Positions 6,717 to 24,232 of a stretch of 64,000 nt of DNA are shown one piece after another. The notes below the pieces were generated by a model, which searched no databases, was not told where the DNA came from, and saw nothing but the letters and a program-made list of their open reading frames with translations. This DNA comes from a virus, in IMG/VR virus record IMGVR_UViG_3300046004_001116, positions 21,920 through 85,919 of that record; one strand, 5' to 3'. The first letter of the stretch is position 1, and the number at the start of each line of letters is the position of its first letter. The position numbers and the translations under genes are program-made.

Positions 6717-7142
6717 ATGAAACACGTACAACAATTTGATGAATTTATTAATGAAGCTGCAAATGCAATAGTTAAACCTAATGCAAAACTAAAAAGTGGT
6801 ACAGGGTTTCCATACGCTTCTTTTTACTTGTCAACTCAAGCATTAGACATAATGATAAATTTTGACGACCCAAAACATATTGCTGTTATTAAACTGCTAG
6901 CCGACCAAGAAAAAGAAATGAAAGACAACGGCTTTTTAAGTAAAAGTTCAATGGATAAAGCAAGAACAGCATATAAAAACGCACTTGGGACTTATGTAGT
7001 GCAGGCAAAGTACGACGGCCCGGATATAACTTTCCGTTTGTCTAGTACGCCAGACGCTAACTTAGATGACGGTAGTAAAAAGCAATGGTTACCTGGATCA
7101 GAGAGCAGCGGCGGTGGAATTACAATGGCAAAGTACATTTAA
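6717..7142 (+). CDS. Hypothetical protein, internal-protein-like N-terminus
   Basis: Starts MKHVQQFDEFINE. Confidence 0.7.
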   Translation: MKHVQQFDEFINEAANAIVKPNAKLKSGTGFPYASFYLSTQALDIMINFDDPKHIAVIKLLADQEKEMKDNGFLSKSSMDKARTAYKNALGTYVVQAKYDGPDITFRLSSTPDANLDDGSKKQWLPGSESSGGGITMAKYI

Positions 7143-7196
7143 AACTTTTCTATTAAAAACAATATTTGCTGGTATAAAAAAACAAAATAAGTAATA

Positions 7197-7892
7197 ATGA
7201 ACAAAACACAATTTACTAATCGTTGGTCAAATATGAATTTGTCCCAACAGGAGTTAGACCGCAAATGGCGTTTACAATTAGAAGCGCAAGAACAAGAACT
7301 TATGATGGCTGAACAAGCTGTTTATTTGGCAAGTATTAATCCTATGAATGCACTGCATGTTGGTGCTTTTGGCGGAGGAACTTTAACACCTCCTGAACCA
7401 CCTGCACCGTCTTCACCATTAACAGTTTTACGGTATGCTACTTCACAAGGTGAAGAAGTTGTGTGGCCTGAAGATTTTCCATTAACTTTTACGTTAGATC
7501 CAACTTTACCTGATTTTTCTTATACTCTTGATGTATCCTATATCCCACCATCTCAAGTCCCAACTCCTGCTGCTTTAATAGGTGTTACAATTGGAAATAC
7601 AGTTACAAGTATTGGTGACCTTGCTTTTACTAATTGTTTTAATTTGGCATCTGTTACATTTGCGCCAATTTCAACAGTTACAAGTATTGGTTCTAACGCG
7701 TTTTCAACTTGCCCCTCATTAACATCTATTGAAATTCCAGATTCAGTTACAAGTGTGGGTGGTAATGCATTTGCTAGTTCAGGATTACAAACTGTAACTA
7801 TATCTTCAGCAACCGCAATTGCTATTGGTATAACATCACCTACTGTTGGGGTTAACTTTTTTGGAGTGACTGTTGATACTATTCTTCCTTAA
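7197..7892 (+). CDS. BspA-type leucine-rich-repeat protein
   Basis: Repeats VTSIGDLAFTNC, VTSIGSNAFSTC, IPDSVTSVGGNAF. Confidence 0.8.
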   Translation: MNKTQFTNRWSNMNLSQQELDRKWRLQLEAQEQELMMAEQAVYLASINPMNALHVGAFGGGTLTPPEPPAPSSPLTVLRYATSQGEEVVWPEDFPLTFTLDPTLPDFSYTLDVSYIPPSQVPTPAALIGVTIGNTVTSIGDLAFTNCFNLASVTFAPISTVTSIGSNAFSTCPSLTSIEIPDSVTSVGGNAFASSGLQTVTISSATAIAIGITSPTVGVNFFGVTVDTILP

Positions 7893-7938
7893 TAACGTAA
7901 AAGTACATTTAAAACTTTTTTCAACTTTTTTCACTAAA

Positions 7939-7978
7939 TGTAAAACTAAGTAAAAAGGCAAGTATATATAATAAACAA
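7939..7978 (+). promoter_or_regulatory. Putative phage promoter of tRNA operon 1 leader
   Basis: tgtaaaactaa-N12-gtatatataataaacaa, same boxes and spacing as at 12623. Confidence 0.6.
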
Positions 7979-8000
7979 AACAATTAATAAATCAAAAACA

Positions 8001-8102
8001 ATGAAATCTCAAGTAATAAATATGGTCCCTGCGTATATTGCCAATCAGCCGATTGAGCAAAAGGAATCTTATTCTAAATCTGGAGATATTATATTTGAGT
8101 AA
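8001..8102 (+). CDS. Leader peptide 1 (33 aa, MKSQVINMVPAYIANQPIEQKESYSKSGDIIFE)
   Basis: A-rich start context; 26 of 33 residues are amino acids whose tRNAs lie in the downstream operon; contains TCTGGAG complementary to the terminator 5' arm. Confidence 0.8.
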   Translation: MKSQVINMVPAYIANQPIEQKESYSKSGDIIFE

Positions 8103-8127
8103 ATACACAACTATAACCAACATATCT

Positions 8128-8160
8128 AAGCTCCAGAATTAATTTTCTGGAGCTTTTTTT
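8128..8160 (+). terminator. Attenuator terminator 1
   Basis: aagctccagaa-ttaatt-ttctggagctt plus U-run; identical to 12812-12843. Confidence 0.9.
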
Positions 8161-8171
8161 ATTGCGATTAA

Positions 8172-8246
8172 TTTAACAAAACTTTAACATATAGAATTTG
8201 CTTGGTATGAAATTATTGGTTAATTTTGCTCTATAATTAAAAACAA
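8172..8246 (+). promoter_or_regulatory. Bacteroidota-type early promoter with upstream TTTAACA repeats
   Basis: TTTG-N20-TAATTTTG fits the -33/-7 consensus; element recurs about 12 times in the window. Confidence 0.7.
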
Positions 8247-8253
8247 CATTATT

Positions 8254-8406
8254 ATGGCAACAATTACAACATACAAGATTAAAGAAAAGTACAAATCACT
8301 TTTAGCTACATATGCTTGGACTAAACTTGATTTAAACGGATCTTATTCTAAAGAAGATTGGAATAAAGCTGGTTTTAAAGATTCTGTCTTAGATATTAAT
8401 TGTTAA
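8254..8406 (+). CDS. Small hypothetical protein (50 aa)
   Basis: ATG just after promoter, open to TAA. Confidence 0.55.
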   Translation: MATITTYKIKEKYKSLLATYAWTKLDLNGSYSKEDWNKAGFKDSVLDINC

Positions 8407-8771
8407 TAACTTTATGAATAAAAGTTTGCATTAGTCAATTTAATTGGTTAATTTTAACTAACAATAAAAATTTAATTATCATGTCTATACAAAATCGAAA
8501 GTTAATCAGAAGCATATACGGAATCCACGGTCTAATCAATATTTTAAGTGGGTTTGACGTAAACGGAAATAATTGTTAAAATTTCATTTAGCTTCGGCTA
8601 AGTATTATTCGTGGTACCAGGCGGGCAGTAGGGGTTACCGAATTAAAACAAACAAGAATGGTGAAATATGGGCTGGCCAGGCAACATAAAGTAACAACGA
8701 CGCTCAGCGGTATCAATTCAAAACCTCCTCGTGGTGATACTGGAAACTTGATTCGTCAAGGCTAATTTGAA

Positions 8772-8783
8772 GTTCATTGACAT
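8772..8783 (+). promoter_or_regulatory. boxA-like antitermination site
   Basis: gttcattgacat, about 14 nt before the first tRNA; counterpart at 12941. Confidence 0.55.
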
Positions 8784-8796
8784 AGTGATAACATTT

Positions 8797-8871
8797 ACGA
8801 GATTAGCTCAGTTGGTTCAGAGCAACTCTTTTACACGGAGAAGGTCACAGGTTCGAATCCTGTATCTCGTA
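8797..8871 (+). tRNA. tRNA-Val(TAC)
   Basis: Cloverleaf; anticodon loop tttacac. Confidence 0.9.
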
Positions 8872-9074
8872 CTAATGAATTAAACGGTCTAAGGATTAGG
8901 ACGCTGGCGTAAGGCACCGGCTGAAACGCCGACCATCGTTGGAGAGATTCTACTCTCTAATTCATAACACACTGCAGTGATTGCCGGCCACACGCATCGG
9001 TTCTTAACGGGAAATCGTTCTCGTCGTTAGGTGAACAGACCGGACAAATTCCTTAGGTGGTGCTAGGGTCAACT

Positions 9075-9148
9075 GCTGCTATAGACGAATTGGTTAAGTC
9101 GTCGCCCTTTCAAGGCGGAGGTTGCGGGTTCAAGTCCCGTTGGCAGTA
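9075..9148 (+). tRNA. tRNA-Glu(TTC)
   Basis: Cloverleaf; loop ctttcaa. Confidence 0.9.
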
Positions 9149-9153
9149 CAACA

Positions 9154-9230
9154 TGAGCGCTGAAGCACAATCGGACGTGCACCTGGCATACGGCCAGTAG
9201 GATATAGGTTCGAATCCTATCTTTGCTCCA
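9154..9230 (+). ncRNA. Degenerate tRNA-like RNA
   Basis: Good T-arm and 3' CCA; imperfect acceptor stem; non-canonical loop catacgg. Confidence 0.5.
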
Positions 9231-9237
9231 AATACTT

Positions 9238-9311
9238 TCTCCTGTCGTCTAGTCGGCTCAGGACGCTGCCCTTTCACGGCGGTAACGCGGGTTCGAATCC
9301 CGTCGGGAGAA
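9238..9311 (+). tRNA. tRNA-Glu(TTC)
   Basis: Cloverleaf; loop ctttcac. Confidence 0.9.
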
Positions 9312-9413
9312 CAACACTACCGAATGGTGTAATCTATGTGTTAAAAGAACAGCGCTGGCTGAGACCAGAGTTCCACCGTAATTGTAGTAATCGGTGATTC
9401 GGTAAACAATATT

Positions 9414-9485
9414 GGTTTCGTAGCTCAGAGGCAGAGCGGCACCCTGTTAAGGTGAGGGTCGGGATTTCGATATTCCCCGAGACCG
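9414..9485 (+). tRNA. tRNA-Asn(GTT)
   Basis: Cloverleaf; loop ctgttaa; variant T-arm. Confidence 0.85.
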
Positions 9486-9497
9486 CAATTAAAAAAT

Positions 9498-9666
9498 AGC
9501 TTTCAGCCAAAGGTGGCGGGCAATACTTTTACTCAGTTATGTATGGACTGTCTTAGACGTAAGGTGGAAAATCATAAAGGTTTAAATAGGATATGACTCT
9601 GATTGTCGACGAGATGAGAGTATCTGATAAGTATCGCTGGGTGGGTTCGATTCCCATTGTGAGCTC
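9498..9666 (+). ncRNA. tRNA-shaped RNA with about 110 nt inserted in place of the anticodon loop
   Basis: Paired ends agctttca/tgtgagct, D-like hairpin, T-arm gtggg-ttcgatt-cccat. Confidence 0.5.
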
Positions 9667-9671
9667 AAGAT

Positions 9672-9745
9672 TCCTCAGTAGCTCAGTTGGTTAGAGCGTC
9701 GGACTGTTAATCCGTAGGTCCTAGGTTCGAGTCCTAGCTGGGGAG
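9672..9745 (+). tRNA. tRNA-Asn(GTT)
   Basis: Canonical cloverleaf. Confidence 0.95.
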
Positions 9746-9749
9746 CAAA

Positions 9750-9892
9750 AGTTGATTACTTTAGGTTACAGGAATTACCAGAAACCTGTCGACATACTCT
9801 TGGGCGTAAGGCAAGAGCAGATTTTGAACCAGGTTTAATCTGTAATGTAAACCTACTCGTATTTAACAATTATACGTTAAGTCTAATCAACT
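9750..9892 (+). ncRNA. Unknown multi-hairpin structured RNA
   Basis: Ends agttgatta/taatcaact pair; internal hairpins acagg/cctgt, ctcttg/caagag, cagatt/aatctg. Confidence 0.55.
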
Positions 9893-9903
9893 AAATTGTA
9901 ACT

Positions 9904-9989
9904 GGCCTTGTAGCTCAATTGGATTGCATTACGCTTAGAGCCACCGACTTTTAATCGGTAGGTTGGGGGTTCGAGTCCCTCCAGGGTCA
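9904..9989 (+). tRNA. tRNA-Lys(TTT) with enlarged D-loop
   Basis: Loop cttttaa; about 12 extra nt in the D-loop. Confidence 0.85.
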
Positions 9990-10087
9990 CAAAGGAATAA
10001 TTACTCTGGCGGTGGTGCGGGTAAGCGCCGGGAAGTAACGCCCGGTTGGCAAAGTAAATTATTCAGAGGTAAGGAAAAGACTAAACT

Positions 10088-10160
10088 GGGGCTATGGTAT
10101 AGATGGCTAACACACTTGCCTTGCACGCAGGAATCCCGAGTTCGAGGCTCGGTAGCTCCA
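10088..10160 (+). tRNA. tRNA-Ala(TGC)
   Basis: GGGGCTA acceptor with G3-U70; loop cttgcac. Confidence 0.9.
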
Positions 10161-10417
10161 CGGGAGTTTTTGAAACGGCCTACTCTTTGAGGCACGTGAT
10201 ATTTGTACTTTAACAAAATTCACAGTATGGCAAGAGGGTTTTTGGAAGCGGCTTTAAGGTATAAGCAATGTATTTGACCAGAACAAAATCATAGTATAAC
10301 TATCTTCTGTCACGTTAGCAGACCGGGTATGGCTACGCACAGTTTGGAAGTAATATGTGTATTAAACAAAACTTTCACCGCGGCGAAACGTTTCCCAAAA
10401 CAAAGTAGTCGCAAGAA

Positions 10418-10502
10418 GGGAGTACGCCGGAGTTGGAGAGCCGGAGCGGTCTGTAACACCGTTGGCATTACGCCTGAGTAGGTTCGAATCCTACTACTTT
10501 CA
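10418..10502 (+). tRNA. tRNA-Tyr(GTA)
   Basis: Loop ctgtaac; long variable arm. Confidence 0.85.
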
Positions 10503-10509
10503 CAAAAAT

Positions 10510-10586
10510 TGAAGCGGAGGTAAGAGTTACATCAACTTTTTATTGGAAAAAACAAACAAACACTCTTCCTAATATTCTCAATTTCA
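10510..10586 (+). ncRNA. Short Y-RNA-like element
   Basis: GAAGCGG..AGAGTTACATC..CTCTT..TAATATTCTC motif shared with RNAs next to the Ro60 gene. Confidence 0.65.
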
Positions 10587-10587
10587 T

Positions 10588-10658
10588 TGTCCGATGGTGT
10601 AACGGTAACACTACTGTTTTTGGTGCAGTCATTCAAGGTTCGAATCCTTGTCGGATAA
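10588..10658 (+). tRNA. tRNA-Gln(TTG)
   Basis: Cloverleaf; loop ttttggt. Confidence 0.9.
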
Positions 10659-10667
10659 CTATTATAT

Positions 10668-10740
10668 TGGAATATGGTATAATGGCTCATTACACGTGGT
10701 TTTGGTCCACGCAATCAAGGTTCGATTCCTTGTATTCCAA
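10668..10740 (+). tRNA. tRNA-Gln(TTG)
   Basis: Cloverleaf; loop ttttggt. Confidence 0.9.
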
Positions 10741-10745
10741 CAATT

Positions 10746-10820
10746 CGCGTAGCGATCCACAGAGAGAGGTTACCCGCCTTGGACGCGGGGTTATTGCAGG
10801 TTCGAGTCCTGTCTACGCGA
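10746..10820 (+). tRNA. tRNA-Pro(TGG), atypical D-arm
   Basis: Loop cttggac; good acceptor and T arms. Confidence 0.75.
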
Positions 10821-10831
10821 CAAATTTTTAA

Positions 10832-10904
10832 CGGGGTGTAGATCAGTTGGTAGATCGCGTGCTTTGGGAGCATGAGGCCGCAGGTTCGAGTCCTGTCACC
10901 CCGA
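10832..10904 (+). tRNA. tRNA-Pro(TGG)
   Basis: Canonical cloverleaf. Confidence 0.95.
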
Positions 10905-10970
10905 CGAGACGAGACTGTTACTAATTCATAGGGGCCCATTCACGCAAGTGTCTGCATAGAATTAGAATTT

Positions 10971-11044
10971 AGGTGGTTAGCTCAACTGGTTAGAGCACTC
11001 GCCTGATACGCGAGAGGTTATGAGTTCGACTCTCATATCACCTA
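10971..11044 (+). tRNA. tRNA-Ile(GAT)
   Basis: Loop ctgatac. Confidence 0.9.
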
Positions 11045-11112
11045 CTAAAAAATATAAAAGTCAAATGAAACAAATTTTAGTCAACTCCTCATAGGTTAGC
11101 ATTGCTAAACTT

Positions 11113-11343
11113 ATGACTCAGAAATTGAGAATTTGGAGAGTAGTTCCCGTTCGTAACGGCGTTCAGGCTCCCACTTTTTTTGTAGAAACTACAGAAGAAG
11201 GACGCGACAAGGCAGAAGTATCTGCTTTAAAACAAGCAAGACAAAGGTCAGGCTTGAGTAAATTTGATTGTTGGAATTTCAATCTTATCAAAACAGAATT
11301 AAGGTTAGATAAGTTTGGAAGATATGTAAAGTATCACCAATAA
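11113..11343 (+). CDS. Hypothetical protein within tRNA operon
   Basis: 76-aa ORF in an inter-tRNA gap. Confidence 0.6.
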   Translation: MTQKLRIWRVVPVRNGVQAPTFFVETTEEGRDKAEVSALKQARQRSGLSKFDCWNFNLIKTELRLDKFGRYVKYHQ

Positions 11344-11389
11344 TAAACTGGGCAGTTTTCGGTCTGCGTAATAATTAAAACCGAAATTT

Positions 11390-11461
11390 GGTGATGTAGC
11401 TCAGCGGCAGAGCACCCGGCTCATATCCGGAAGGTCGAGGTCTCGGAATCCTCCATCGCTA
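11390..11461 (+). tRNA. tRNA-Met(CAT), variant T-loop
   Basis: Loop ctcatat. Confidence 0.8.
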
Positions 11462-11465
11462 CAAA

Positions 11466-11524
11466 TGTATACTTTAATATACAATATGGTCTAAAACGGC
11501 TATAATTGTATATTAAAGTATACA
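11466..11524. repeat. Perfect 20-bp inverted repeat
   Basis: tgtatactttaatatacaat ... attgtatattaaagtataca. Confidence 0.9.
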
Positions 11525-11535
11525 AACAATAAATT

Positions 11536-11672
11536 CCAGAAGCGGCAAAGAGAGTTACTTCGTCTGTTAAACGAGAGGTCGTAGGTTCGAGTCCTACTGC
11601 GTGTACCTTGATGGGAAACGTATAGCTCAGTTGGTTAGAGCGCTAAAAATCTCTCTCTTAATTATTCTCTGG
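11536..11672 (+). ncRNA. yrlA: YrlA-type Y RNA with circularly permuted tRNA domain
   Basis: Terminal ccaga/tctgg stem with GAAGCGG; T-arm, then closed acceptor-like stem, then D-arm. Confidence 0.8.
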
Positions 11673-11678
11673 CAATTT

Positions 11679-11752
11679 GACTCGGTAGCTCAGTTGGTAG
11701 TAGCACCTCACTTTTAATGAGGGGGTCGTGGGTTCGAGTCCCACCCGGGTCA
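11679..11752 (+). tRNA. tRNA-Lys(TTT)
   Basis: Canonical cloverleaf. Confidence 0.9.
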
Positions 11753-11766
11753 CAAATATTAATCAT

Positions 11767-11844
11767 GGGAGCAGCTGGGATAGCGCGGGTGGTGTCGAGC
11801 CACCTTTCACCGGTAGCTTGAGGTTCGAGTCCTCTTTGTTCCCC
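11767..11844 (+). ncRNA. Degenerate tRNA-like RNA
   Basis: Acceptor gggagca/tgttccc and T-arm present; non-canonical loop tgtcgag. Confidence 0.5.
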
Positions 11845-11858
11845 TAAATGTTATCAGT

Positions 11859-12110
11859 ATGACACGAGAACAGAAAATAGCAAAAAGGAAACTTCGTGCT
11901 TCTATCCACAGAGAAAAAAGAAACGAAAAGTACTTTAAAAAAATACGAGCGGCAAATGATATAGGCGGGTGGGTTCCACTTTATGCCGTTGATAGCCGTG
12001 GATACGTTTCAGGTTCATGGCCTGACTCAAGTAGCCCTACAGGATATTCACAAAGATGTTCTTATGATGCCTGGGGAACTTGTCAAAGTCCATGCAACGG
12101 AGACTGTTAA
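11859..12110 (+). CDS. Hypothetical Cys-tailed protein
   Basis: 83-aa ORF in an inter-tRNA gap. Confidence 0.6.
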   Translation: MTREQKIAKRKLRASIHREKRNEKYFKKIRAANDIGGWVPLYAVDSRGYVSGSWPDSSSPTGYSQRCSYDAWGTCQSPCNGDC

Positions 12111-12114
12111 AAAT

Positions 12115-12173
12115 TGGGAGGTCGCATAGTTGGTTAGTGCTCATCTTCGGTGGTTCGAGTCCACCCCTCCCCA
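12115..12173 (+). ncRNA. Mini-tRNA lacking the anticodon arm
   Basis: Acceptor, D and T arms intact; only 8 nt (tcatcttc) between D and T arms. Confidence 0.65.
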
Positions 12174-12175
12174 CT

Positions 12176-12359
12176 AAGATTTAATCTGCTAAACGCAAAA
12201 TGGTATGTTGCCGCCGATAACTACGGAAACACAAGCAAGGAAGGAGGTCACTTGCCGCATACAGGAAACACAGATCCGTTCATTTTGTTAGTAAGGTATC
12301 GGGTACATTCGGTTGTACTTGGGTATTCACCAATCTGTGCCGGTGACAGATTAAATTTT
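12176..12359 (+). ncRNA. Unknown structured RNA
   Basis: 13-bp terminal stem aagatttaatctg/cagattaaatttt with internal hairpins. Confidence 0.5.
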
Positions 12360-12362
12360 TAT

Positions 12363-12436
12363 GGCCATGTAACTCAGTTGGTTAGAGTGCCCGCCTCATA
12401 AGCGGAGAGTCCTTGGTTCGAGTCCAAGCTTGGCCA
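12363..12436 (+). tRNA. tRNA with CAT anticodon (Met or lysidine-type Ile2)
   Basis: Loop ctcataa; lacks the initiator GGG/CCC anticodon stem. Confidence 0.85.
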
Positions 12437-12622
12437 CATGAAAACGCAAGTAACGGTATTATTCCGAAGCGATGATAAGAATTACAATTGGTCATCAGTA
12501 TTATCTAAAGAAGTAGGATATGAATTTGTTAAACTACAGAAAATAGAGAACACGGATAATCCAAGATGGCCAAAATGGTCTTTTATCATTACTTACAAAA
12601 AAAGTAAATAAAAATGCAAAAG

Positions 12623-12663
12623 TGTAAAACTAACCGTTTTCACGTGTATATATAATAAACAAC
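12623..12663 (+). promoter_or_regulatory. Putative phage promoter of tRNA operon 2 leader
   Basis: tgtaaaactaa-N12-gtatatataataaacaa, as at 7939. Confidence 0.6.
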
Positions 12664-12677
12664 AAATAAATTAAACA

Positions 12678-12785
12678 ATGCAAACACAATCATTACATAC
12701 AAGATCGTTTACGTCAAGCTGGAACTTATGTTTCGGACTAGGGCGCGATTGTGACATAGATCTGGAGGATCTGACTACTATCTAA
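12678..12785 (+). CDS. Leader peptide 2 (35 aa, MQTQSLHTRSFTSSWNLCFGLGRDCDIDLEDLTTI)
   Basis: 28 of 35 residues are amino acids whose tRNAs lie in the downstream operon; TCTGGAG at 12761. Confidence 0.8.
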   Translation: MQTQSLHTRSFTSSWNLCFGLGRDCDIDLEDLTTI

Positions 12786-12810
12786 TGTAATTTGCATACA
12801 AGATATTTTC

Positions 12811-12843
12811 AAAGCTCCAGAATTAATTTTCTGGAGCTTTTTT
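12811..12843 (+). terminator. Attenuator terminator 2
   Basis: Same hairpin as 8128-8160, plus U-run. Confidence 0.9.
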
Positions 12844-12854
12844 ATTGCGATTAA

Positions 12855-12930
12855 TTTAACAAAACTTTAACATATTAAATTTGCTTTACATCTTTTAATT
12901 GGTTAATTTTATACTGTAATTAAAAACAAC
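12855..12930 (+). promoter_or_regulatory. Bacteroidota-type early promoter
   Basis: tttaacaaaactttaaca ... TTTG-N20-TAATTTTA. Confidence 0.65.
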
Positions 12931-12940
12931 CATTAATTGC

Positions 12941-12952
12941 ATTCTTTGACAT
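12941..12952 (+). promoter_or_regulatory. boxA-like antitermination site
   Basis: attctttgacat just before tRNA-Phe. Confidence 0.6.
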
Positions 12953-12968
12953 ACTGAAAACTAAAATT

Positions 12969-13041
12969 GGTGCTGTGGCAGATCAGGTGATTGCGGCGGA
13001 CTGAAAATCCGTAGGAGTGGGTTCGATACCCACCGGCACCA
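12969..13041 (+). tRNA. tRNA-Phe(GAA)
   Basis: Loop ctgaaaa. Confidence 0.9.
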
Positions 13042-13156
13042 CACAAACTTATTTAAGGTTCGACCCTCACCCATTTTGCGCTCAATTCGCATTTACTTTG
13101 GAAGACTGGTTCTAGAGGGAGCTACCGACTGATAAGTGGCCGCACACGCGGCAAAT

Positions 13157-13231
13157 GCCTGAGTGGGTAAACTGGTAAAGCCGCTTGACTTAGGATCAAG
13201 AGTTCTGTGGGTTCGACTCCCACCTCGGGTA
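13157..13231 (+). tRNA. tRNA-Leu(TAG) with short variable region
   Basis: Loop cttagga; only 6 nt variable region. Confidence 0.85.
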
Positions 13232-13315
13232 CAAATTATTTAGTTCCATGCATAAGCTCAAACAGCTCCCTGAAATTACATGGTTTAAAGGAGCTTAAAC
13301 TAAATAATAAATTTT

Positions 13316-13392
13316 GGTGCCGCAGCATATCGGCGTATGATGCTCGCCTGTCACGTGGGAGATTGCGGGTTCGAATCCCGTCGGTACCGCCA
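13316..13392 (+). tRNA. tRNA-Asp(GTC)
   Basis: Loop ctgtcac; encoded CCA; weak D-arm. Confidence 0.8.
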
Positions 13393-13432
13393 TCTGGTTA
13401 AGATTCCAGAGAACAATCAAAAATCTACAAAC

Positions 13433-13506
13433 ACCCTCATGGTCCAGTTGGAGTGGATGTCGCCCTGTCACGGCGAAGATCGCGGGTTCGAGTCCCGCTG
13501 GGGGTG
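13433..13506 (+). tRNA. tRNA-Asp(GTC)
   Basis: Loop ctgtcac. Confidence 0.9.
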
Positions 13507-13612
13507 CAAAAAACTGGGGTAGAAAAATCTTAGGACGGCAATCCGTAGATGTAATACGATGGTTACTGCACAAAGAGAAAAGTAATTTGCCGATGAAATT
13601 CACTTAGCAGTT

Positions 13613-13700
13613 TTCCTTTTGATGAAATTGGCAAACATGGCTCGCGCGAAGCGAGTGCTCAGGGTTTACTCTGATAAAGGTTCGAGTCCTTTAAGGGAAA
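13613..13700 (+). tRNA. Type II tRNA-like gene, anticodon uncertain (CGA/Ser with G33?)
   Basis: Full cloverleaf with long variable arm; loop cgcgaag lacks U33. Confidence 0.5.
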
Positions 13701-13750
13701 CAAATTTCAGGAGTAATTAACCTGAAGCTGAATGGTTCGAAACATTCGAT

Positions 13751-13860
13751 TGGTCATGGTGTATTGGGCACGGTAGAACGGAGTAATCGTACGCAGAGCG
13801 TTAGGCTCTCAACGGCGGTGAAAGGGAAAACAGGTTAAAGGTTCGAATCCTTAGGATCAG
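13751..13860 (+). ncRNA. tRNA-like RNA with substituted central domain
   Basis: D-like start and T-arm aaggttcgaatcctt; no anticodon arm. Confidence 0.4.
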
Positions 13861-13862
13861 CT

Positions 13863-13933
13863 TGCGTTAAAGTGTAAAGGTTGCATGGGACTCTCATAAG
13901 GTCTACGGGGTGGTTCGAGTCCACGCTACGCTA
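13863..13933 (+). tRNA. Degenerate tRNA with CAT anticodon
   Basis: Loop ctcataa; mismatched acceptor stem. Confidence 0.5.
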
Positions 13934-14020
13934 CAAAATTCTAAGTGTGTCTTGGTACGCTCTGACAACCGTCAACGACAAGGTCTCGGTAGGCAAAACG
14001 CGTTTGATCCTACCCATTCT

Positions 14021-14094
14021 GCAGTAGTAGCTCAGTTGGTAGAGCGCTGCCTTGCCAAGGCAGAGGTTCGCGGGTTCGAATCCCGTCTACTGCT
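14021..14094 (+). tRNA. tRNA-Gly(GCC)
   Basis: Loop ttgccaa. Confidence 0.95.
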
Positions 14095-14101
14095 CAAATA
14101 T

Positions 14102-14175
14102 GCGGGTATGGTGTTTAACGGTTAGCACGTGAGCCTTCCAAGTTTGAAGTTTCGGTTCGAATCCGAATATCCGCT
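14102..14175 (+). tRNA. tRNA-Gly(TCC)
   Basis: Loop cttccaa. Confidence 0.9.
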
Positions 14176-14180
14176 CAACT

Positions 14181-14254
14181 GGTCTTGTAGCTCAACTGGA
14201 TAGAGCATTGGTTTTCTAAACCAACGGTTATGGGTTCGATTCCCGTCAAGATCA
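14181..14254 (+). tRNA. tRNA-Arg(TCT)
   Basis: Loop tttctaa. Confidence 0.9.
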
Positions 14255-14261
14255 CAAACAT

Positions 14262-14332
14262 ACGCCTATGGTGCAACGGTAGCATGACGGTCTCCAAAAC
14301 CGTTGATAAAGGTTCGAATCCTTTTGGGCGTG
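14262..14332 (+). tRNA. tRNA-Trp(CCA)
   Basis: Loop ctccaaa. Confidence 0.95.
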
Positions 14333-14341
14333 CAAATATAA

Positions 14342-14428
14342 GGAGAGGTGCCAGAGTGGTCGATTGGACCGGTCTTGAAAACCGGAGAGCGTGAAAGCGC
14401 TCCGTGGGTTCGAATCCCACCCTCTCTT
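14342..14428 (+). tRNA. tRNA-Ser(TGA)
   Basis: Loop cttgaaa; long variable arm. Confidence 0.9.
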
Positions 14429-14431
14429 CAA

Positions 14432-14579
14432 AATTAGAAGCGGTACATTGAGATACTTCAATATCCAAAACTGCCATTTGTTGGTTCGAGTCCAACCTGA
14501 GGTGTTAATAGCACCTCGGTGGTGAAATGGTAAACACAGCAGTCCCAAAACAAGACGCTCATGTAAACATTCTCTAATT
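14432..14579 (+). ncRNA. yrlA: Second YrlA-type Y RNA
   Basis: aattaga/tctaatt stem with GAAGCGG; T-arm, closed acceptor gaggtg/cacctc, then D-arm. Confidence 0.8.
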
Positions 14580-14584
14580 GAATT

Positions 14585-14658
14585 GCTGGCGACGCATGAA
14601 TGGTGGTGCACCGGATTTGTAACCCGGACTAGAGTCGGTTCGATCCCGACCGTCAGCT
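14585..14658 (+). tRNA. tRNA-Thr(TGT)
   Basis: Loop tttgtaa. Confidence 0.85.
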
Positions 14659-14664
14659 CAAAAT

Positions 14665-14735
14665 GGCCCTATGACCGAGCGGTTAGGTGCAGGTCTGCAA
14701 AATCTGTTAGGTTGGTTCGACTCCAACTGGTGCCT
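14665..14735 (+). tRNA. tRNA-Cys(GCA)
   Basis: Loop ctgcaaa. Confidence 0.9.
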
Positions 14736-14738
14736 CGA

Positions 14739-14934
14739 GAATAATCAGAGGACTCATCGCTGGAAACAGAGGAAGTTCGCGACAACTAAACCTAACATGG
14801 GAGATGTAAAAATCGTTCGTACCACGGAAGTTGCAAGTTAAACAGTTTGAGGGTGTCGGTTTCCCTATGAGAACGGGTTAATGCAAAGTCAAATGATGGG
14901 ATAAAACAGAAACGCGGCTACGCTCAATTATTCA
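14739..14934 (+). ncRNA. rnpB: Reduced RNase P RNA (about 196 nt)
   Basis: P1 gaataat/attattc; P4 strands GAGGAAGTTCGCG and AACAGAAACGCGGCTA resemble conserved regions I and V. Confidence 0.75.
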
Positions 14935-14938
14935 AATT

Positions 14939-15020
14939 GCCCAGGTGGAGAAATTGGTAGACTCGCCAGCCTAAGGAGCTGGTGCCGCAAGGCGTGAGGG
15001 TTCGAGTCCCTCCTTGGGTA
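14939..15020 (+). tRNA. tRNA-Leu(AAG)
   Basis: ccagc-ctaagga-gctgg; long variable arm. Confidence 0.85.
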
Positions 15021-15032
15021 CAAAATTAAAAT

Positions 15033-15121
15033 GGGCCGATTGGTGTAACTGGGAATGAATACCAGCTTGGGTTAACACGAACCTGTAGGTTCGGCTGAGA
15101 GTTCGAATCTCTCATCGGTCC
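15033..15121 (+). ncRNA. tRNA-like RNA with 8-bp acceptor and no clear anticodon arm
   Basis: gggccgat/atcggtcc; T-arm gagag-ttcgaat-ctctc. Confidence 0.5.
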
Positions 15122-15238
15122 CGGTATCTCCCAAGGGAGAAAACTCTGGTTGGTGGTCTGACCTTATAGACCGCAATAAGACTGTCAAGGTAGGACGTCA
15201 GTTATAGAGAGGTGAGCCATACCTATTCCTCTCAACAT

Positions 15239-15313
15239 GGTGATTGTAGCTCAGTTGGTTAGAGCGCTGGTTTGTGGTACCAGAGGTCGCGGGTTCGACC
15301 CCCGTCATTCACC
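15239..15313 (+). tRNA. tRNA-His(GTG)
   Basis: G-1:C73 pair; loop ttgtggt. Confidence 0.9.
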
Positions 15314-15328
15314 CTAAAAAGAATACTT

Positions 15329-15478
15329 ATGAAAGGCATTGAATTAATTCCAATTGGGCCTGTTTCTGAAGAAGCAAAGGCTAGGTTAAAGAAACGATCT
15401 GAAAGGGATAAAGCAAGATTAGACCAAATGGTTAAAGACGCTAAAGAAGGCAAGTATGATCATATAATAAACAAATAG
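15329..15478 (+). CDS. Small hypothetical protein
   Basis: ATG at 15329 downstream of tRNA-His, 49 aa. Confidence 0.5.
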   Translation: MKGIELIPIGPVSEEAKARLKKRSERDKARLDQMVKDAKEGKYDHIINK

Positions 15479-15483
15479 AAAGC

Positions 15484-15705
15484 ATGAAAGCGGGAGCTAA
15501 AACAACAGACAAAGATTTTAATAACTTAATTACATACTTGGAAAGATTCAAAGGTGCTAATATTACAATCACTGTTGATAAAAATCCTTCGCCTGAAAAG
15601 ATTGCTTATATAAAAGAAAGAATAAAGATAAGTGAGCAACGTGCTCAAAACGGCCGGGTGGTGGAACTGGTAGACACGCTGGGTTTAAGCCCCAGTGGGC
15701 AGTAA
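15484..15705 (+). CDS. Small hypothetical protein (3' end overlaps tRNA-Leu)
   Basis: ORF track. Confidence 0.4.
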   Translation: MKAGAKTTDKDFNNLITYLERFKGANITITVDKNPSPEKIAYIKERIKISEQRAQNGRVVELVDTLGLSPSGQ

Positions 15706-15737
15706 TGCCCGTGCGGGTTCGAATCCCGCTCTGGTCA
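15652..15737 (+). tRNA. tRNA-Leu(TAA)
   Basis: Loop tttaagc; long variable arm. Confidence 0.9.
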
Positions 15738-15741
15738 CAAA

Positions 15742-15827
15742 GGAGAGGTAAGCATAGTGGTACTGCAGCGGATTGCTAATCCGTTCGGCGTTTATTCGTC
15801 GCGTGGGTTCGATCCCCACTCTCTCCG
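15742..15827 (+). tRNA. tRNA-Ser(GCT)
   Basis: Loop ttgctaa; long variable arm. Confidence 0.9.
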
Positions 15828-15846
15828 CAATATATAATAAAACAAT

Positions 15847-15918
15847 GGCCTGTTAGTTTAACGGATAGAACTCTGGTTTACGGCATCAGCGATGGGGGTT
15901 CGAGTCCCTCACGGGTCA
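15847..15918 (+). tRNA. tRNA-Arg(ACG)
   Basis: Loop ttacggc. Confidence 0.85.
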
Positions 15919-15942
15919 CTAATCAAATAAAAAACAAATGTC

Positions 15943-16395
15943 ATGGTATTTAGAAAGCTCGCAGATAGGCAGGAAGTTGACTTATTACCATACGCACATG
16001 ATTTCCTAACGGAACATCCAGAGCATAAACTCTACGTGGGTACGGATAGTCAAAACATCGGAAAAACTACAGTTTATGCAACAGTTATTGTGTTTCATAA
16101 TAACAACGGTGGTGGTCACGTTTTATATTCTAAGGTAACAGTACCTAGAATCGCGGACAGATGGACCAGATTGTGGAAAGAAGTAGAAATGTCAGTTCAA
16201 GCAGCTGACCTTTTAAAAGAAGGAGATTTTCATCCGGTAGATTTTATTGACTTGGATTTAAACCCAGACCCAAGATACAAATCGAATATGGTCTTAAGAT
16301 CAGCTGTTGGTTATGTTGAGAGTTTTGGTTACAAAGCAAGAGTAAAACCGAATGCGACTATTGCATCTTGTGTTGCAGATAGTATCTTCCGTTAA
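15943..16395 (+). CDS. RNase H-like YkuK (DUF458) family protein
   Basis: YVGTDSQ, RLWKEVEMS, IDLDLN, ASCVAD pattern. Confidence 0.75.
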   Translation: MVFRKLADRQEVDLLPYAHDFLTEHPEHKLYVGTDSQNIGKTTVYATVIVFHNNNGGGHVLYSKVTVPRIADRWTRLWKEVEMSVQAADLLKEGDFHPVDFIDLDLNPDPRYKSNMVLRSAVGYVESFGYKARVKPNATIASCVADSIFR

Positions 16396-16488
16396 GAACT
16401 ATTATATAAGAAGTGAATATATAATCTATAATACTTTGGGGTGTAAAAGCCCCAAATATTTTTACTAACTAAAATAAAACAAAAAAAC

Positions 16489-16845
16489 ATGAAGTAGGTA
16501 CAAACAAAATTCTCCGAAACAAAATTAATCGTTGTCACTAGATCTGATATTTCTCCGGGCTATCAAGTAGTCCAATCAACACACTCAATCGCTGATTTCT
16601 CATATCAGCATCCTGAAGCTTTCCAACAGTGGAAGAATGATTCAAACTCAATCATTTGCCTTTCAGTGCCTTCAGAAGAGAAACTTCTCAAACTATTTAA
16701 TAAATTCGAAAACCGTATACCGGCTACAGCGTTCTATGAACCAGACGTATCCGAATGGACTTCCGTGTGCTTACTTGGCACCCCAGAGATTCGTAAAGCA
16801 CTTTCGCATTTACCGCTATCATTAAAAAACTCCGATGTATTATGA
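16489..16845 (+). CDS. PTH2-like peptidyl-tRNA hydrolase with in-frame TAG at codon 3
   Basis: ATG AAG TAG then an open frame KLIVVTRSDISPGYQVVQSTHS...FYEPD..WTSVC; stop overlaps the next start (ATGA); absent from ORF track. Confidence 0.7.
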
Positions 16846-17267
16846 AAGGAATCTTAAAAGTTAGAAGCTTTGATGCGCTTAAAAAATTAAGTACAAAAAG
16901 AGCTTACGGTAAACACAAAAGATTACATGAAAGAATGAGACATATTCATACGTCTATTCTATTTCTTGAAGAACACAAATTACTTACTGTGGATATGCTA
17001 TGGGATATGTTATGTGTTTACATTAGCTATCAAAGAGAAGCAGGTAAACTTTATTATGTTTACGCTTACGCTAGACCAGATAGTTGGTATAAGACAAACA
17101 ATCGAATATTTACCGAATTTACACCAGAACATGTTGATTCGTATATTAATCATATACTTACAAATGCTTATAGCCATGTAATGAATCTGCCGTATGAACT
17201 ACATAAAAAATACAGAGACATTATCATCGGGAGAGAAAAAGAACTAAAATTAAAAAACAACAATTAA
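16842..17267 (+). CDS. Hypothetical protein
   Basis: ORF track. Confidence 0.65.
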   Translation: MKGILKVRSFDALKKLSTKRAYGKHKRLHERMRHIHTSILFLEEHKLLTVDMLWDMLCVYISYQREAGKLYYVYAYARPDSWYKTNNRIFTEFTPEHVDSYINHILTNAYSHVMNLPYELHKKYRDIIIGREKELKLKNNN

Positions 17268-18970: not shown

Positions 18971-20593
18971 ATGAGCAGATTAACACCTTATTCAGACAAA
19001 AGAACAGCTACATCTAATGAAGCTTATTCTACCGTAGTGGAAAACTACATGGGCGGAAACTCTTTTAACGTTTCTCCGCTTGCAACTCTTAAAATTGTAA
19101 CCGCAAGTTCAATCTTTGGAGAACCAAGATATTACCAAGACGGTATAGGATCTTCTAAAACTATTAAGAATCATTCAACTCTTATGGAGTATGATATCTT
19201 TAGTGATGGGGTGAAAGATAACCGAAGTGTAGTGGATGTATTTACTTCTGCAATTGACAATGCATTAGACTTTGACTTCAAAGCAACATTGGATTTTGCA
19301 TTAGAACTACGTACAGAATACTTCATGCGTCTTAACCCAGCGGTTATCTTTGTTCGTGCTTCACAGCATCCAAACAGAGTTGCGTTTAATGAAGCTAATC
19401 CAGGCTACATGAAATCTATCGGAAAAGCAATCGCTTTAAGACCTGATGACGTAACAAACCAATTGGATTACTACATGTTCTTAAACGGTTCTAAGAAAGG
19501 TTTGCCTTCTTTACTTAAAAGAACTTGGGCTGATACTCTTGAGTCATTCTCTAGATATCAATTAAACAAATATAAAGGTAAAAGTCTTATTGACCTTGTA
19601 AGAATCTCACACGCAAGTAACGATGATATTACTGAGTTAATGAAGACAGGAACAATTAAAGTTACATCATCTGAACAAACTTGGGAAAGTTTAAAGAGTG
19701 CTGGAAAAACTTGGGTTGAGATTCTTGACACAATTAAAGTTCCTCACATGGCTCTTTTAAGAAACCTTCGTGGAATCTTTACAGAAATCAATGATGCGGC
19801 TATTGCGGCTAAAGTTCTTGAGCAATTGGAATCTGGTGTTTTATACGGAAAGCAATTTCCTTTTAGATACTGGAGTGCTTTTAAAGCAATTCAATCCGCG
19901 GACGTTAATCACTCTGGATTAATTAAAGACAGTCTTGAAAAATGTATGGACCTTGCGGTTGCTAACATGCCAAAACTTGACGGTCGAGTAATGTCTCTTT
20001 GTGATAACTCAGGTTCTGCTTGGGGATCTCTTAATTCAGAATACGGTTCTGTTACAGTGGCAGAGATTGCCAACTTGTCAGCAATCATTACTGCACAACA
20101 ATCTGCGGAAGGTTATGTAGGAGTATTTGGTGACAGACTTAAAACTCGTTCTATCTCTAAAAGAAATGGTCTTTTAACTCAGTTAAATGAATCAAACACT
20201 GAAGGAAGAGGAATTGGTGGAGGAACTGAAAACGGAATTTGGTTATTCTGGGATAAAGCAATCAAGGATAAACAACACTGGGACACCGTGTTTATCTATT
20301 CTGATATGCAAGCAGGTCACGGAAACCTTTACGGCACAAACGAAAGAGACTATGCAGAGTTTGCGCACAAACGTTCTAACCGATACATTGATGTACTTGC
20401 ATTAGTGGAAAAATATAGAAAAACTGTTAATCCAAAAGTTAACGTTTTCTCAGTACAAGTTGCTGGGTACGATAATACAGTACTTCCTGAAAACTTATAC
20501 CGTGGTGCAATCTTAGCAGGGTGGACGGGTAAAGAATGTCACTATGCCGACGCTGTTATAAAAGCTTGGAATGAAATAGAGAATCAAAAATAA
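18971..20593 (+). CDS. rsr: Ro60/TROVE-domain RNA-binding protein with vWA domain
   Basis: MALLRNLR, QFPFRYWSA, DNSGS MIDAS motif, GGGTE, IYSDMQ; flanked by Y RNAs. Confidence 0.9.
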   Translation: MSRLTPYSDKRTATSNEAYSTVVENYMGGNSFNVSPLATLKIVTASSIFGEPRYYQDGIGSSKTIKNHSTLMEYDIFSDGVKDNRSVVDVFTSAIDNALDFDFKATLDFALELRTEYFMRLNPAVIFVRASQHPNRVAFNEANPGYMKSIGKAIALRPDDVTNQLDYYMFLNGSKKGLPSLLKRTWADTLESFSRYQLNKYKGKSLIDLVRISHASNDDITELMKTGTIKVTSSEQTWESLKSAGKTWVEILDTIKVPHMALLRNLRGIFTEINDAAIAAKVLEQLESGVLYGKQFPFRYWSAFKAIQSADVNHSGLIKDSLEKCMDLAVANMPKLDGRVMSLCDNSGSAWGSLNSEYGSVTVAEIANLSAIITAQQSAEGYVGVFGDRLKTRSISKRNGLLTQLNESNTEGRGIGGGTENGIWLFWDKAIKDKQHWDTVFIYSDMQAGHGNLYGTNERDYAEFAHKRSNRYIDVLALVEKYRKTVNPKVNVFSVQVAGYDNTVLPENLYRGAILAGWTGKECHYADAVIKAWNEIENQK

Positions 20594-24159: not shown

Positions 24160-24232
24160 TGCGGGGTAGAGCAGTTGGTAGCTCAGTGGGCTCATAACCC
24201 AAAGGTCGCAGGTTCGAGTCCTGCCCCCGCTA
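24160..24232 (+). tRNA. Initiator tRNA-fMet(CAT)
   Basis: Unpaired 1-72, GGG/CCC anticodon stem, loop ctcataa. Confidence 0.9.

Follow-up and report, generated by a model that had tools for sequence, protein, structure and literature searches.

Short leader reading frames matched to the tRNA operons behind them suggest ribosome-mediated attenuation of viral tRNA genes

Two operons of transfer RNA (tRNA) genes in a 64,000-nucleotide stretch of viral DNA (hereafter the window; bases 21920-85919 of the 85.9-kb IMG/VR viral contig IMGVR_UViG_3300046004_001116, estimated to be 30% complete) divided the amino acids between them, and each was preceded by a short open reading frame (ORF), the leader, whose codons matched the tRNAs of its own operon, and by a predicted intrinsic terminator. 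Leaders of the same layout stood before tRNA operons of different content in related loci, where the match extended to the choice of synonymous codon. We consider it likely that these elements are ribosome-mediated attenuators, which couple transcription of a tRNA operon to the supply of the tRNAs that it encodes; each set of tRNAs is probably made only when ribosomes decode its codons slowly. The elements of the two putative attenuators and their operons were as follows (nt, nucleotides; bp, base pairs).

7940..7978, + strand: promoter-like motif 1, a 10-nt upstream box (7940-7949) and an exact 17-mer (7962-7978)
8001..8102, + strand: leader ORF 1, 33 codons and a stop codon
8010..8066, + strand: candidate sensor core 1, codons 4-22, 19/19 of them read by operon 1 tRNAs
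8079..8085, + strand: candidate antiterminator strand 1, TCTGGAG, a copy of the terminator 3' arm, complementary to 8131-8137
8128..8160, + strand: predicted intrinsic terminator 1, 11-bp stem, 6-nt loop and 7-T run
8797..12437, + strand: tRNA operon 1, Val, Glu, Asn, Lys, Ala, Tyr, Gln, Pro, Ile and Met (CAT, twice)
12624..12662, + strand: promoter-like motif 2, the same two boxes as motif 1
12678..12785, + strand: leader ORF 2, 35 codons and a stop codon
12690..12755, + strand: candidate sensor core 2, codons 5-26, 21/22 of them read by operon 2 tRNAs
12761..12767, + strand: candidate antiterminator strand 2, TCTGGAG, in a reading frame that differs from that in leader 1
12811..12843, + strand: predicted intrinsic terminator 2, 12-bp stem and 6-T run, also closing operon 1
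12969..15919, + strand: tRNA operon 2, Phe, Leu (three), Asp (two), Ser (three), Gly (two), Arg (two), Trp, Thr (weak), Cys and His

ARAGORN called 31 tRNAs within 8797-15919 and one more at 24160, and the 21.9 kb of contig that the window does not cover had no further tRNA. An earlier note on this DNA, the original prediction, had described a ten/ten division of the amino acids between the operons, and ARAGORN and Rfam agreed on it: each operon served ten amino acids, with zero overlap between the two sets. The Thr gene (14585-14658) was a weak call, with 38.8 bits in Rfam and an ARAGORN assignment (Thr-tgt) at the relaxed threshold only, and a 'degenerate CAT gene' that had been claimed for operon 2 could not be found. 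Two calls made by ARAGORN at its relaxed threshold, Arg-tcg at 11768 and Lys-ctt at 15034, would blur the division and were dropped because they were without Rfam support. In operon 1 the tRNA genes were interspersed with small ORFs and other structured RNAs, and Rfam gave extra tRNA matches at 9156-9228 (36 bits) and 9904-9989 (58 bits). The second of these, a tRNA-like gene of 86 nt with an extra segment, was missed by ARAGORN at default settings; run with introns, ARAGORN reported Leu-tag with a 9-nt intron, and we read the anticodon loop as TTT (Lys). As there was no strong terminator on the + strand between 8160 and 12811, attenuator 2 would also end operon 1, and the next terminator-like site after 12843 was at 16435.

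Each leader drew on the amino acids of the operon behind it, as had been stated. All 19 residues encoded by codons 4-22 of leader 1 came from set 1 and included ten of its ten amino acids, and 21 of the 22 residues encoded by codons 5-26 of leader 2 came from set 2 (the exception being Asn16), again with ten of ten amino acids present. Counted over the whole peptides, residues from set 1 and set 2 numbered 25 vs 7 in leader 1 and 6 vs 28 in leader 2, and the codons that could be read by the leader's own operon were 25/32 and 28/34, respectively. The codons of core 2 addressed all three Ser tRNAs, both Arg tRNAs and two of the three Leu tRNAs of operon 2, and leader 2 contained the rare codon TCG, matching the Ser-cga tRNA. 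When the 359 small ORFs of the window (20-60 codons) were scored against both sets, only the two leaders reached 10/10 coverage, with runs of 21-22. The random-peptide test that had been proposed for leader composition bore out the match: peptides drawn from the window's own amino-acid composition, and required to reach the same score and coverage, did so 7 times in 100000 for leader 1 and 0 times in 100000 for leader 2.

The sequences around the leaders were likewise as originally described. Both leaders were preceded by the same promoter-like motif, with an identical 17-mer at 7962 and 12646; the exact 17-mer occurred only there in the window, and allowing up to three mismatches gave 8 matches vs 1.1 expected. 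The leader copies of TCTGGAG, at 8079 and 12761, fell in different frames. The stop codon followed them at 21 and 22 nt, and the CTCCAGA of an identical terminator, whose 22-nt core was at 8131 and 12815, at 52 and 54 nt. This 7-nt copy of the 3' arm ended 14-15 nt before each stop codon, and TCTGGAG had six sites on the + strand of the 64 kb, two in the leaders, two in the terminator 3' arms and two elsewhere. Between the last sampled codon and the 7-mer there were 12 nt in leader 1 and 5 nt in leader 2, so that a ribosome stalled in most of the core would leave the 7-mer free. The stop codon lay ~26 nt before the terminator stem in the window, and up to ~40 nt in relatives, so a ribosome at the stop codon would cover the 7-mer and be too far away to block the hairpin.

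No close relative of the window was found in the INPHARED phage collection, either by DNA or by a neighbouring protein of 790 amino acids, and none came from scanning IMG/VR for exact copies of the terminator core. The leucine-rich repeat (LRR) protein encoded upstream of leader 1 led to 22 loci, one of which had a transfer-messenger RNA (L017) and none of which had a tRNA array, and a search for relatives of the ribonuclease (RNase) H-like protein encoded downstream of the array gave none. The Ro60/TROVE gene of the window (18971-20593) led to 45 IMG/VR loci at 25-77% identity; 29 of them had tRNAs and 28 had at least three on the + strand, tying the Ro60 gene to tRNA arrays in most of its relatives. 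Leader-type ORFs in the same layout were recognised in 19 of the 28 loci with at least three tRNAs.

The relatives grouped their tRNAs in different ways, and their leaders differed with them. A clade of 14 loci (L035 through L056, plus L068; here the L050 clade, after one of its members) had a grouping other than that of the window, with operons for 6, 4 and 16 amino acids (Ser/Arg/Pro/Ile/Met/Leu, Glu/Asp/Met/Leu, and 16 further amino acids), each behind a terminator and its short ORF. In front of the block of 16, the ORF contained 29 consecutive codons for exactly those 16 amino acids, and the ORF of the first block consisted, for 13-14 codons, of Ile, Leu, Pro, Ser and Arg. One variant of this first-block leader (L045/L046:12588-12647) was without Pro codons, and its operon had Arg, Met, Ile and Leu tRNAs without tRNA-Pro or tRNA-Ser; the leader kept three Ser codons and gained Phe codons, so the co-loss was only partial. 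Other partitions were operons of 12 and 8 (L058/L072), of 7, 10 and 5 (L063/L064) and of 4 (L074), and one example from a distant locus was a stretch of 32-36 codons that used the ten amino acids of the following block and no others. The original prediction would have fallen had homologous leaders borne no relation to the tRNA sets behind them; it passed this test, as leaders and operon contents co-varied across at least five lineages.

A screen that was blind to composition, and asked for a short ORF with a 3'-arm copy of 6 nt or more close to where it ends, a hairpin with a T-run and a tRNA no more than 900 nt away, returned 29 distinct peptides, 17 of which matched their own operon with p <= 0.001 and 20 with p <= 0.01. 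These p values used a rough amino-acid background, and the key tests were repeated with frequencies measured from the window. The other nine peptides comprised two at truncated locus ends, two at operon boundaries that were merged because the next leader failed the exact-copy filter, the L047 leader, and four weak cases (p 0.04-0.08; three leaders of Glu-Asp-Met-Leu type and one from L072). With the measured background, 11 representative pairs of leader and operon were matched by 7, 0, 0, 739, 1, 39, 0, 1, 0, 0 and 0 random peptides per 100000, and the cross-matrices were dominated by their diagonals, each leader fitting its own operon far better than the others of the same phage.

Every well-matched leader ended with a copy of the 3' arm of its own terminator, and the terminators were unrelated between families. 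Taken as at least 6 nt lying 12-95 nt upstream of the terminator, such a copy was found at 28 of the 36 terminators within 150 nt before a tRNA and at 4 of the 5 that lay 150-700 nt before one, as against 3 of the 120 other predicted terminators of the same loci; with unrelated terminator sequences counted once, ~8 of ~14 had the copy. The pairing between copy and 5' arm was present in 68/68 cells in family C, where all changes were G-U, and in 92.9% of cells in family A, which had one compensatory change (A-U to U-A) at a position in the terminator loop. The ORF of family A ended inside or beyond the motif while the nucleotides were unchanged, and this shifting of the stop codon over a fixed RNA motif points to a constraint on the 3'-arm copy at the RNA level. 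In minimum-energy folds computed without the 3' arm, the copy paired with the 5' arm in nine of nine leaders, giving antiterminator folds of -11.7 (leader 1) and -16.7 kcal/mol (leader 2) in the window. The antiterminator of some relatives was about as stable as the terminator fold, as for the leader at 15206 of L063 (helix of -24.6 vs a full-length fold of -25.9 kcal/mol). Neither a 1:2 protector hairpin of the trp type nor a conserved upstream partner of the antiterminator strand was evident, though no systematic search for them was made.

The layout of ribosome-mediated attenuation, as originally proposed for the window, is supported in relatives by the amino-acid set, by the synonymous codon and by the terminator complement. 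Under this mechanism, transcription would start at the shared upstream motif and enter the short ORF, which samples codons of the downstream tRNAs. If all of these codons were decoded fast, the ribosome would reach the end of the ORF and cover or unwind the 6-9 nt copy of the 3' arm; with the copy covered, the terminator hairpin would form and transcription would stop before the tRNA genes. If any of the sampled aminoacyl-tRNAs were scarce, the ribosome would stall upstream and the copy would stay free to pair with the emerging 5' arm of the terminator, in which case no terminator would form and the polymerase would read into the tRNA genes. The outcome would be negative feedback, an operon being made when its own tRNAs run short. 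As no protector hairpin was evident, the default for a leader without any translation would be read-through.

It is improbable, in our judgement, that the same ORF and hairpin act with the opposite sign or by another route, be it read-through by coupling or Rho protection, RNA stability or processing of tRNA precursors. The sign of the switch cannot be read from sequence, and the relative weakness of the window's antiterminator would suit such a reading. So would contigs from the RNA libraries of four metatranscriptome runs (7900-8203 in X24, 12302-12873 in X19 and 12508-13392 in X22), which bridge both terminators, so that read-through forms may exist; these contigs differ from the window by 10-22 letters, may stem from DNA carry-over and do not give strand or ends, and we take them as a sign of presence only. 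However, a terminating ribosome would sit on the antiterminator copy and could not cover a hairpin at ~26 to ~40 nt, and a pure coupling or Rho model gives the conserved 3'-arm copy at the ORF end no role.

Attenuation by ribosome position could in principle respond either to tRNAs or to amino acids, and on this the choice between synonymous codons is informative. In the L050 clade, four amino acids have isoacceptors that are split between operons, and 22 of 25 leader codons were read by their own operon: ATA went with Ile-tat vs ATC/ATT with Ile-gat, AGA with the Arg anticodon tct vs CGC with acg, TCA/TCG with the Ser anticodon tga vs AGT/AGC with gct, and TTA with the Leu anticodon taa vs CTT/CTA with tag. 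The same leader position held GGC in L058 (Gly-gcc) vs GGA in L072 (Gly-tcc). The covariation of leader codons with operon content that was to be sought in relatives thus holds down to synonymous codon and anticodon, and this match at the level of isoacceptors points to the supply of tRNA, rather than of amino acids, as the signal that is sensed. We regard it as very unlikely that the leaders instead sense amino-acid starvation, as classical attenuators do. A ribosome reads aminoacyl-tRNA only, and to it a missing amino acid looks no different from a missing tRNA; yet the synonymous codons of the leaders track the anticodons of their own operons, and extra tRNA would bring no relief from starvation.

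Substitutions within leaders of families A and C mostly kept to the set. Variant codons could still be read by the own operon in 14 of 17 cases in family A (where 14 of the 61 sense codons qualify) and in 19 of 19 cases in family C (43 of 61), a constraint on codons that bears only indirectly on whether the leaders are translated. That the small ORFs encode functional micro-proteins, with the tRNA match a by-product, has slightly less in its favour again than sensing of starvation: the ORFs are conserved within clades, but what is conserved is membership of the set and not the order or chemistry of residues, family A freely exchanging Ile, Leu, Ser and Pro; peptides at corresponding positions in different lineages are unrelated; and family A keeps the RNA motif but shifts the stop codon. 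That two small ORFs beside tRNA arrays have this composition by chance, a reading for which the abundance of such ORFs in the window might speak, was tested and rejected on the random-peptide counts, on the full coverage reached by only 2 of the 359 ORFs and on the recurrence of the pattern, with different sets, in 19 of 28 related tRNA-bearing loci.

Several points weigh against attenuation by tRNA-sensing leaders. Most leader codons were present one to four times, with no long runs of the kind seen in classical attenuators. The antiterminator of the window, of only 7 bp, was weaker than the folds that contain the terminator (-21.5 and -27.8 kcal/mol) and would have to act kinetically. No pair in family C had changed on both sides, and the compensatory pair of family A was reached by 46 of 500 shuffles, making the covariation thin; the shuffling control for the folds was uninformative, as 16 to 153 of 200 shuffles gave as many pairs between upstream sequence and arm. 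The tRNA calls in relatives came from ARAGORN at its relaxed threshold only, and nine of the 28 tRNA-bearing loci were without a recognisable leader (L032, L057, L059, L060, L061, L062, L067, L073 and L075). The leader of the Glu-Asp-Met-Leu operon fitted weakly (739/100000), and in this weak family, B, variant codons stayed in the set in 8 of 29 cases (9 of 61 sense codons qualify). In L047 the leader for 16 amino acids was retained, but the 2.8 kb remaining before the locus ends showed tRNAs for Trp, Arg, Cys and Gln only. From sequence we infer that the leaders are translated, which way the switch works and what its physiological trigger would be. In the window, leader 1 was 645 nt from the first tRNA, and copies of a repeated promoter-like element lay behind both terminators, from where they could bypass the attenuators, for example early in infection.

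8172..8245, + strand: promoter-like element after terminator 1, a copy of the repeat, with a further copy at ~8420-8478
12855..12930, + strand: promoter-like element after terminator 2, a copy of the repeat

This caveat of promoters behind the terminators, already raised in the original prediction, stands for the present phage and falls away for most relatives, in which the terminator ended 27-48 nt before the first tRNA and left no room for such an element. The repeated element (~70 nt) had an invariant TTTGC and a TTGGTTAA core, and lay ~25-30 nt before ORF starts. It was also present upstream of five protein ORFs (8255, 8482, 46970, 47868 and 49032), its remaining copies being those at ~46880, 47785 and 48960. 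Its layout, TTTG ... TAATTTT(A/G), resembles that of Bacteroidota promoters.

On balance, we lean towards a demand sensor in giant phages of several lineages, in which a translated 'test track' would sample the tRNAs of its own operon isoacceptor by isoacceptor and the operon would be on only when one of them limits. Such a sensor could also switch on replacement tRNAs when tRNAs are cleaved by defence systems or degraded during infection. Its trigger could be tRNA loss induced by defence, host shut-off or simple homeostasis, and a role of the attenuators in countering defence is a guess on our part.

Multivalent leaders are known from enterobacteria, where the thr leader has Thr and Ile codons and the ilvGMEDA leader Ile, Val and Leu codons; trp, his, leu and phe leaders are further examples. 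The trp antiterminator is held to act kinetically, the terminator being more stable than the antiterminator. Like enterobacterial attenuators, the phage elements have regulatory codons in a short ORF of the 5' leader and, after it, an intrinsic terminator whose 5' arm has an alternative partner in an upstream strand. The position of the ribosome would select the fold, and in logic the phage elements are closest to the multivalent thr and ilv leaders. They differ in that the operons encode tRNAs and not biosynthetic enzymes, so that the product would itself be the molecule sensed; in that the amino acids sampled by one leader number 4 to 16, at the resolution of isoacceptors and mostly with one to four codons each; and in that the ORF contains the antiterminator strand or ends with it, with no 1:2 protector hairpin of the trp type in evidence. 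T-box riboswitches bind uncharged tRNA directly and have no ORF. Like them, the phage elements would let the status of specific tRNAs set the choice between terminator and antiterminator upstream of translation-related genes, whereas the proposed sensor in the phage is the ribosome. None of the 39 Rfam matches (E <= 0.1) in 7000-17000 was to a leader family (His, Trp, Thr, Leu) or to the T-box.

No published account of leader-peptide or attenuator control of tRNA genes was found in a search that left subscription journals and supplementary files outside its range, in keeping with the earlier statement that no described attenuator of this kind was known to control tRNA arrays. In the portions of the source covered here, the long tRNA array of Anabaena sp. 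PCC 7120 stays silent unless translation is impaired, whereupon it aids survival, and its induction under translational stress is attributed to promoter repeats and not to attenuation; 'attenuat', 'leader' and 'terminator' have zero occurrences in that text (PMC8421152). To that extent the array resembles the phage operons in coupling a supernumerary tRNA supply to translational stress. Phage tRNAs are reported to counter host defences that target tRNAs (PMC10264068, PMC10802454), and these two reports, in the parts considered, give a rationale for replacing depleted tRNAs and concern the tRNAs themselves, not leader-peptide control. Two possible precedents were set aside. Bacillus phage G has a Ro60 gene of 51% identity, but its tRNAs stand directly behind sigma-A-type promoters and have no leader ORFs. 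A Phe-rich leader of an Escherichia coli tRNA-Phe gene was not borne out, the ~105 nt upstream of pheV and pheU in K-12 being plain promoters with no leader ORF.

The purpose of tRNA genes in phages has been under debate for decades, and little is known of their regulation. If attenuation by tRNA-sensing leaders is correct, the virus would gauge, one codon at a time, how well the infected cell can decode and would replenish only what is missing, and leader-peptide attenuation would extend from amino-acid operons to RNA genes whose own products are sensed. The leaders would then also show which tRNAs the phage expects to be limiting, which could be compared with the targets of host tRNA-cleaving defences. 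As compact natural parts that would report the availability of chosen tRNAs, they might find use in synthetic biology and cell-free systems.

The tRNA arrays lay in a distinct part of the window, with a guanine plus cytosine content of 40-46% at 7900-16500 vs ~34% in the flanks and a high density of tRNA genes. DNA near-identical to the window was present in lake-water metagenomes. Neighbouring proteins carried BspA-type LRR and Fib_succ_major domains, a possible hint of a Bacteroidota host. An RNase H-like ORF (15943-16395) followed operon 2, and behind it was the terminator-like site mentioned above.

16435..16464, + strand: terminator-like site after the array, following the RNase H-like ORF

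Weak matches to other structured RNAs lay in or just upstream of the array. A match to a hepatitis delta virus (HDV)-like ribozyme family at 8710-8772 (33.1 bits vs a gathering score of 44) was situated 25 nt upstream of the first operon 1 tRNA, within a structured stretch at ~8582-8780. In operon 1 and adjoining tRNA-Lys, 11536-11675 matched Y-RNA-like (YrlA) RNA with 34.3 bits vs a gathering score of 69, and the Ro60/TROVE protein gene is 7 kb downstream of this match. Between tRNA-Cys and tRNA-Leu, 14740-14932 gave a sub-threshold match to archaeal-type RNase P RNA (26.4 bits vs a gathering score of 84). In each operon the first tRNA was preceded, at a distance of 20-30 nt, by a conserved motif with TTTGACAT (TTTGAAAT in one case), located at 8773-8790 and 12945-12960 in the window and at ~8725, 11350 and 13310 in L050. 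Its spacing was unlike that of a sigma-70 or Bacteroidota promoter, and it may be a processing signal. Suppressor-like tRNAs (anticodon cta or tta; ARAGORN, relaxed threshold) were called at L059:9839, at 12185 in L060, L067 and L073, at L061:1826 and at L068:17787, and Bacillus phage G has an annotated tRNA with anticodon tta; such tRNAs may indicate read-through of stop codons in this phage group.

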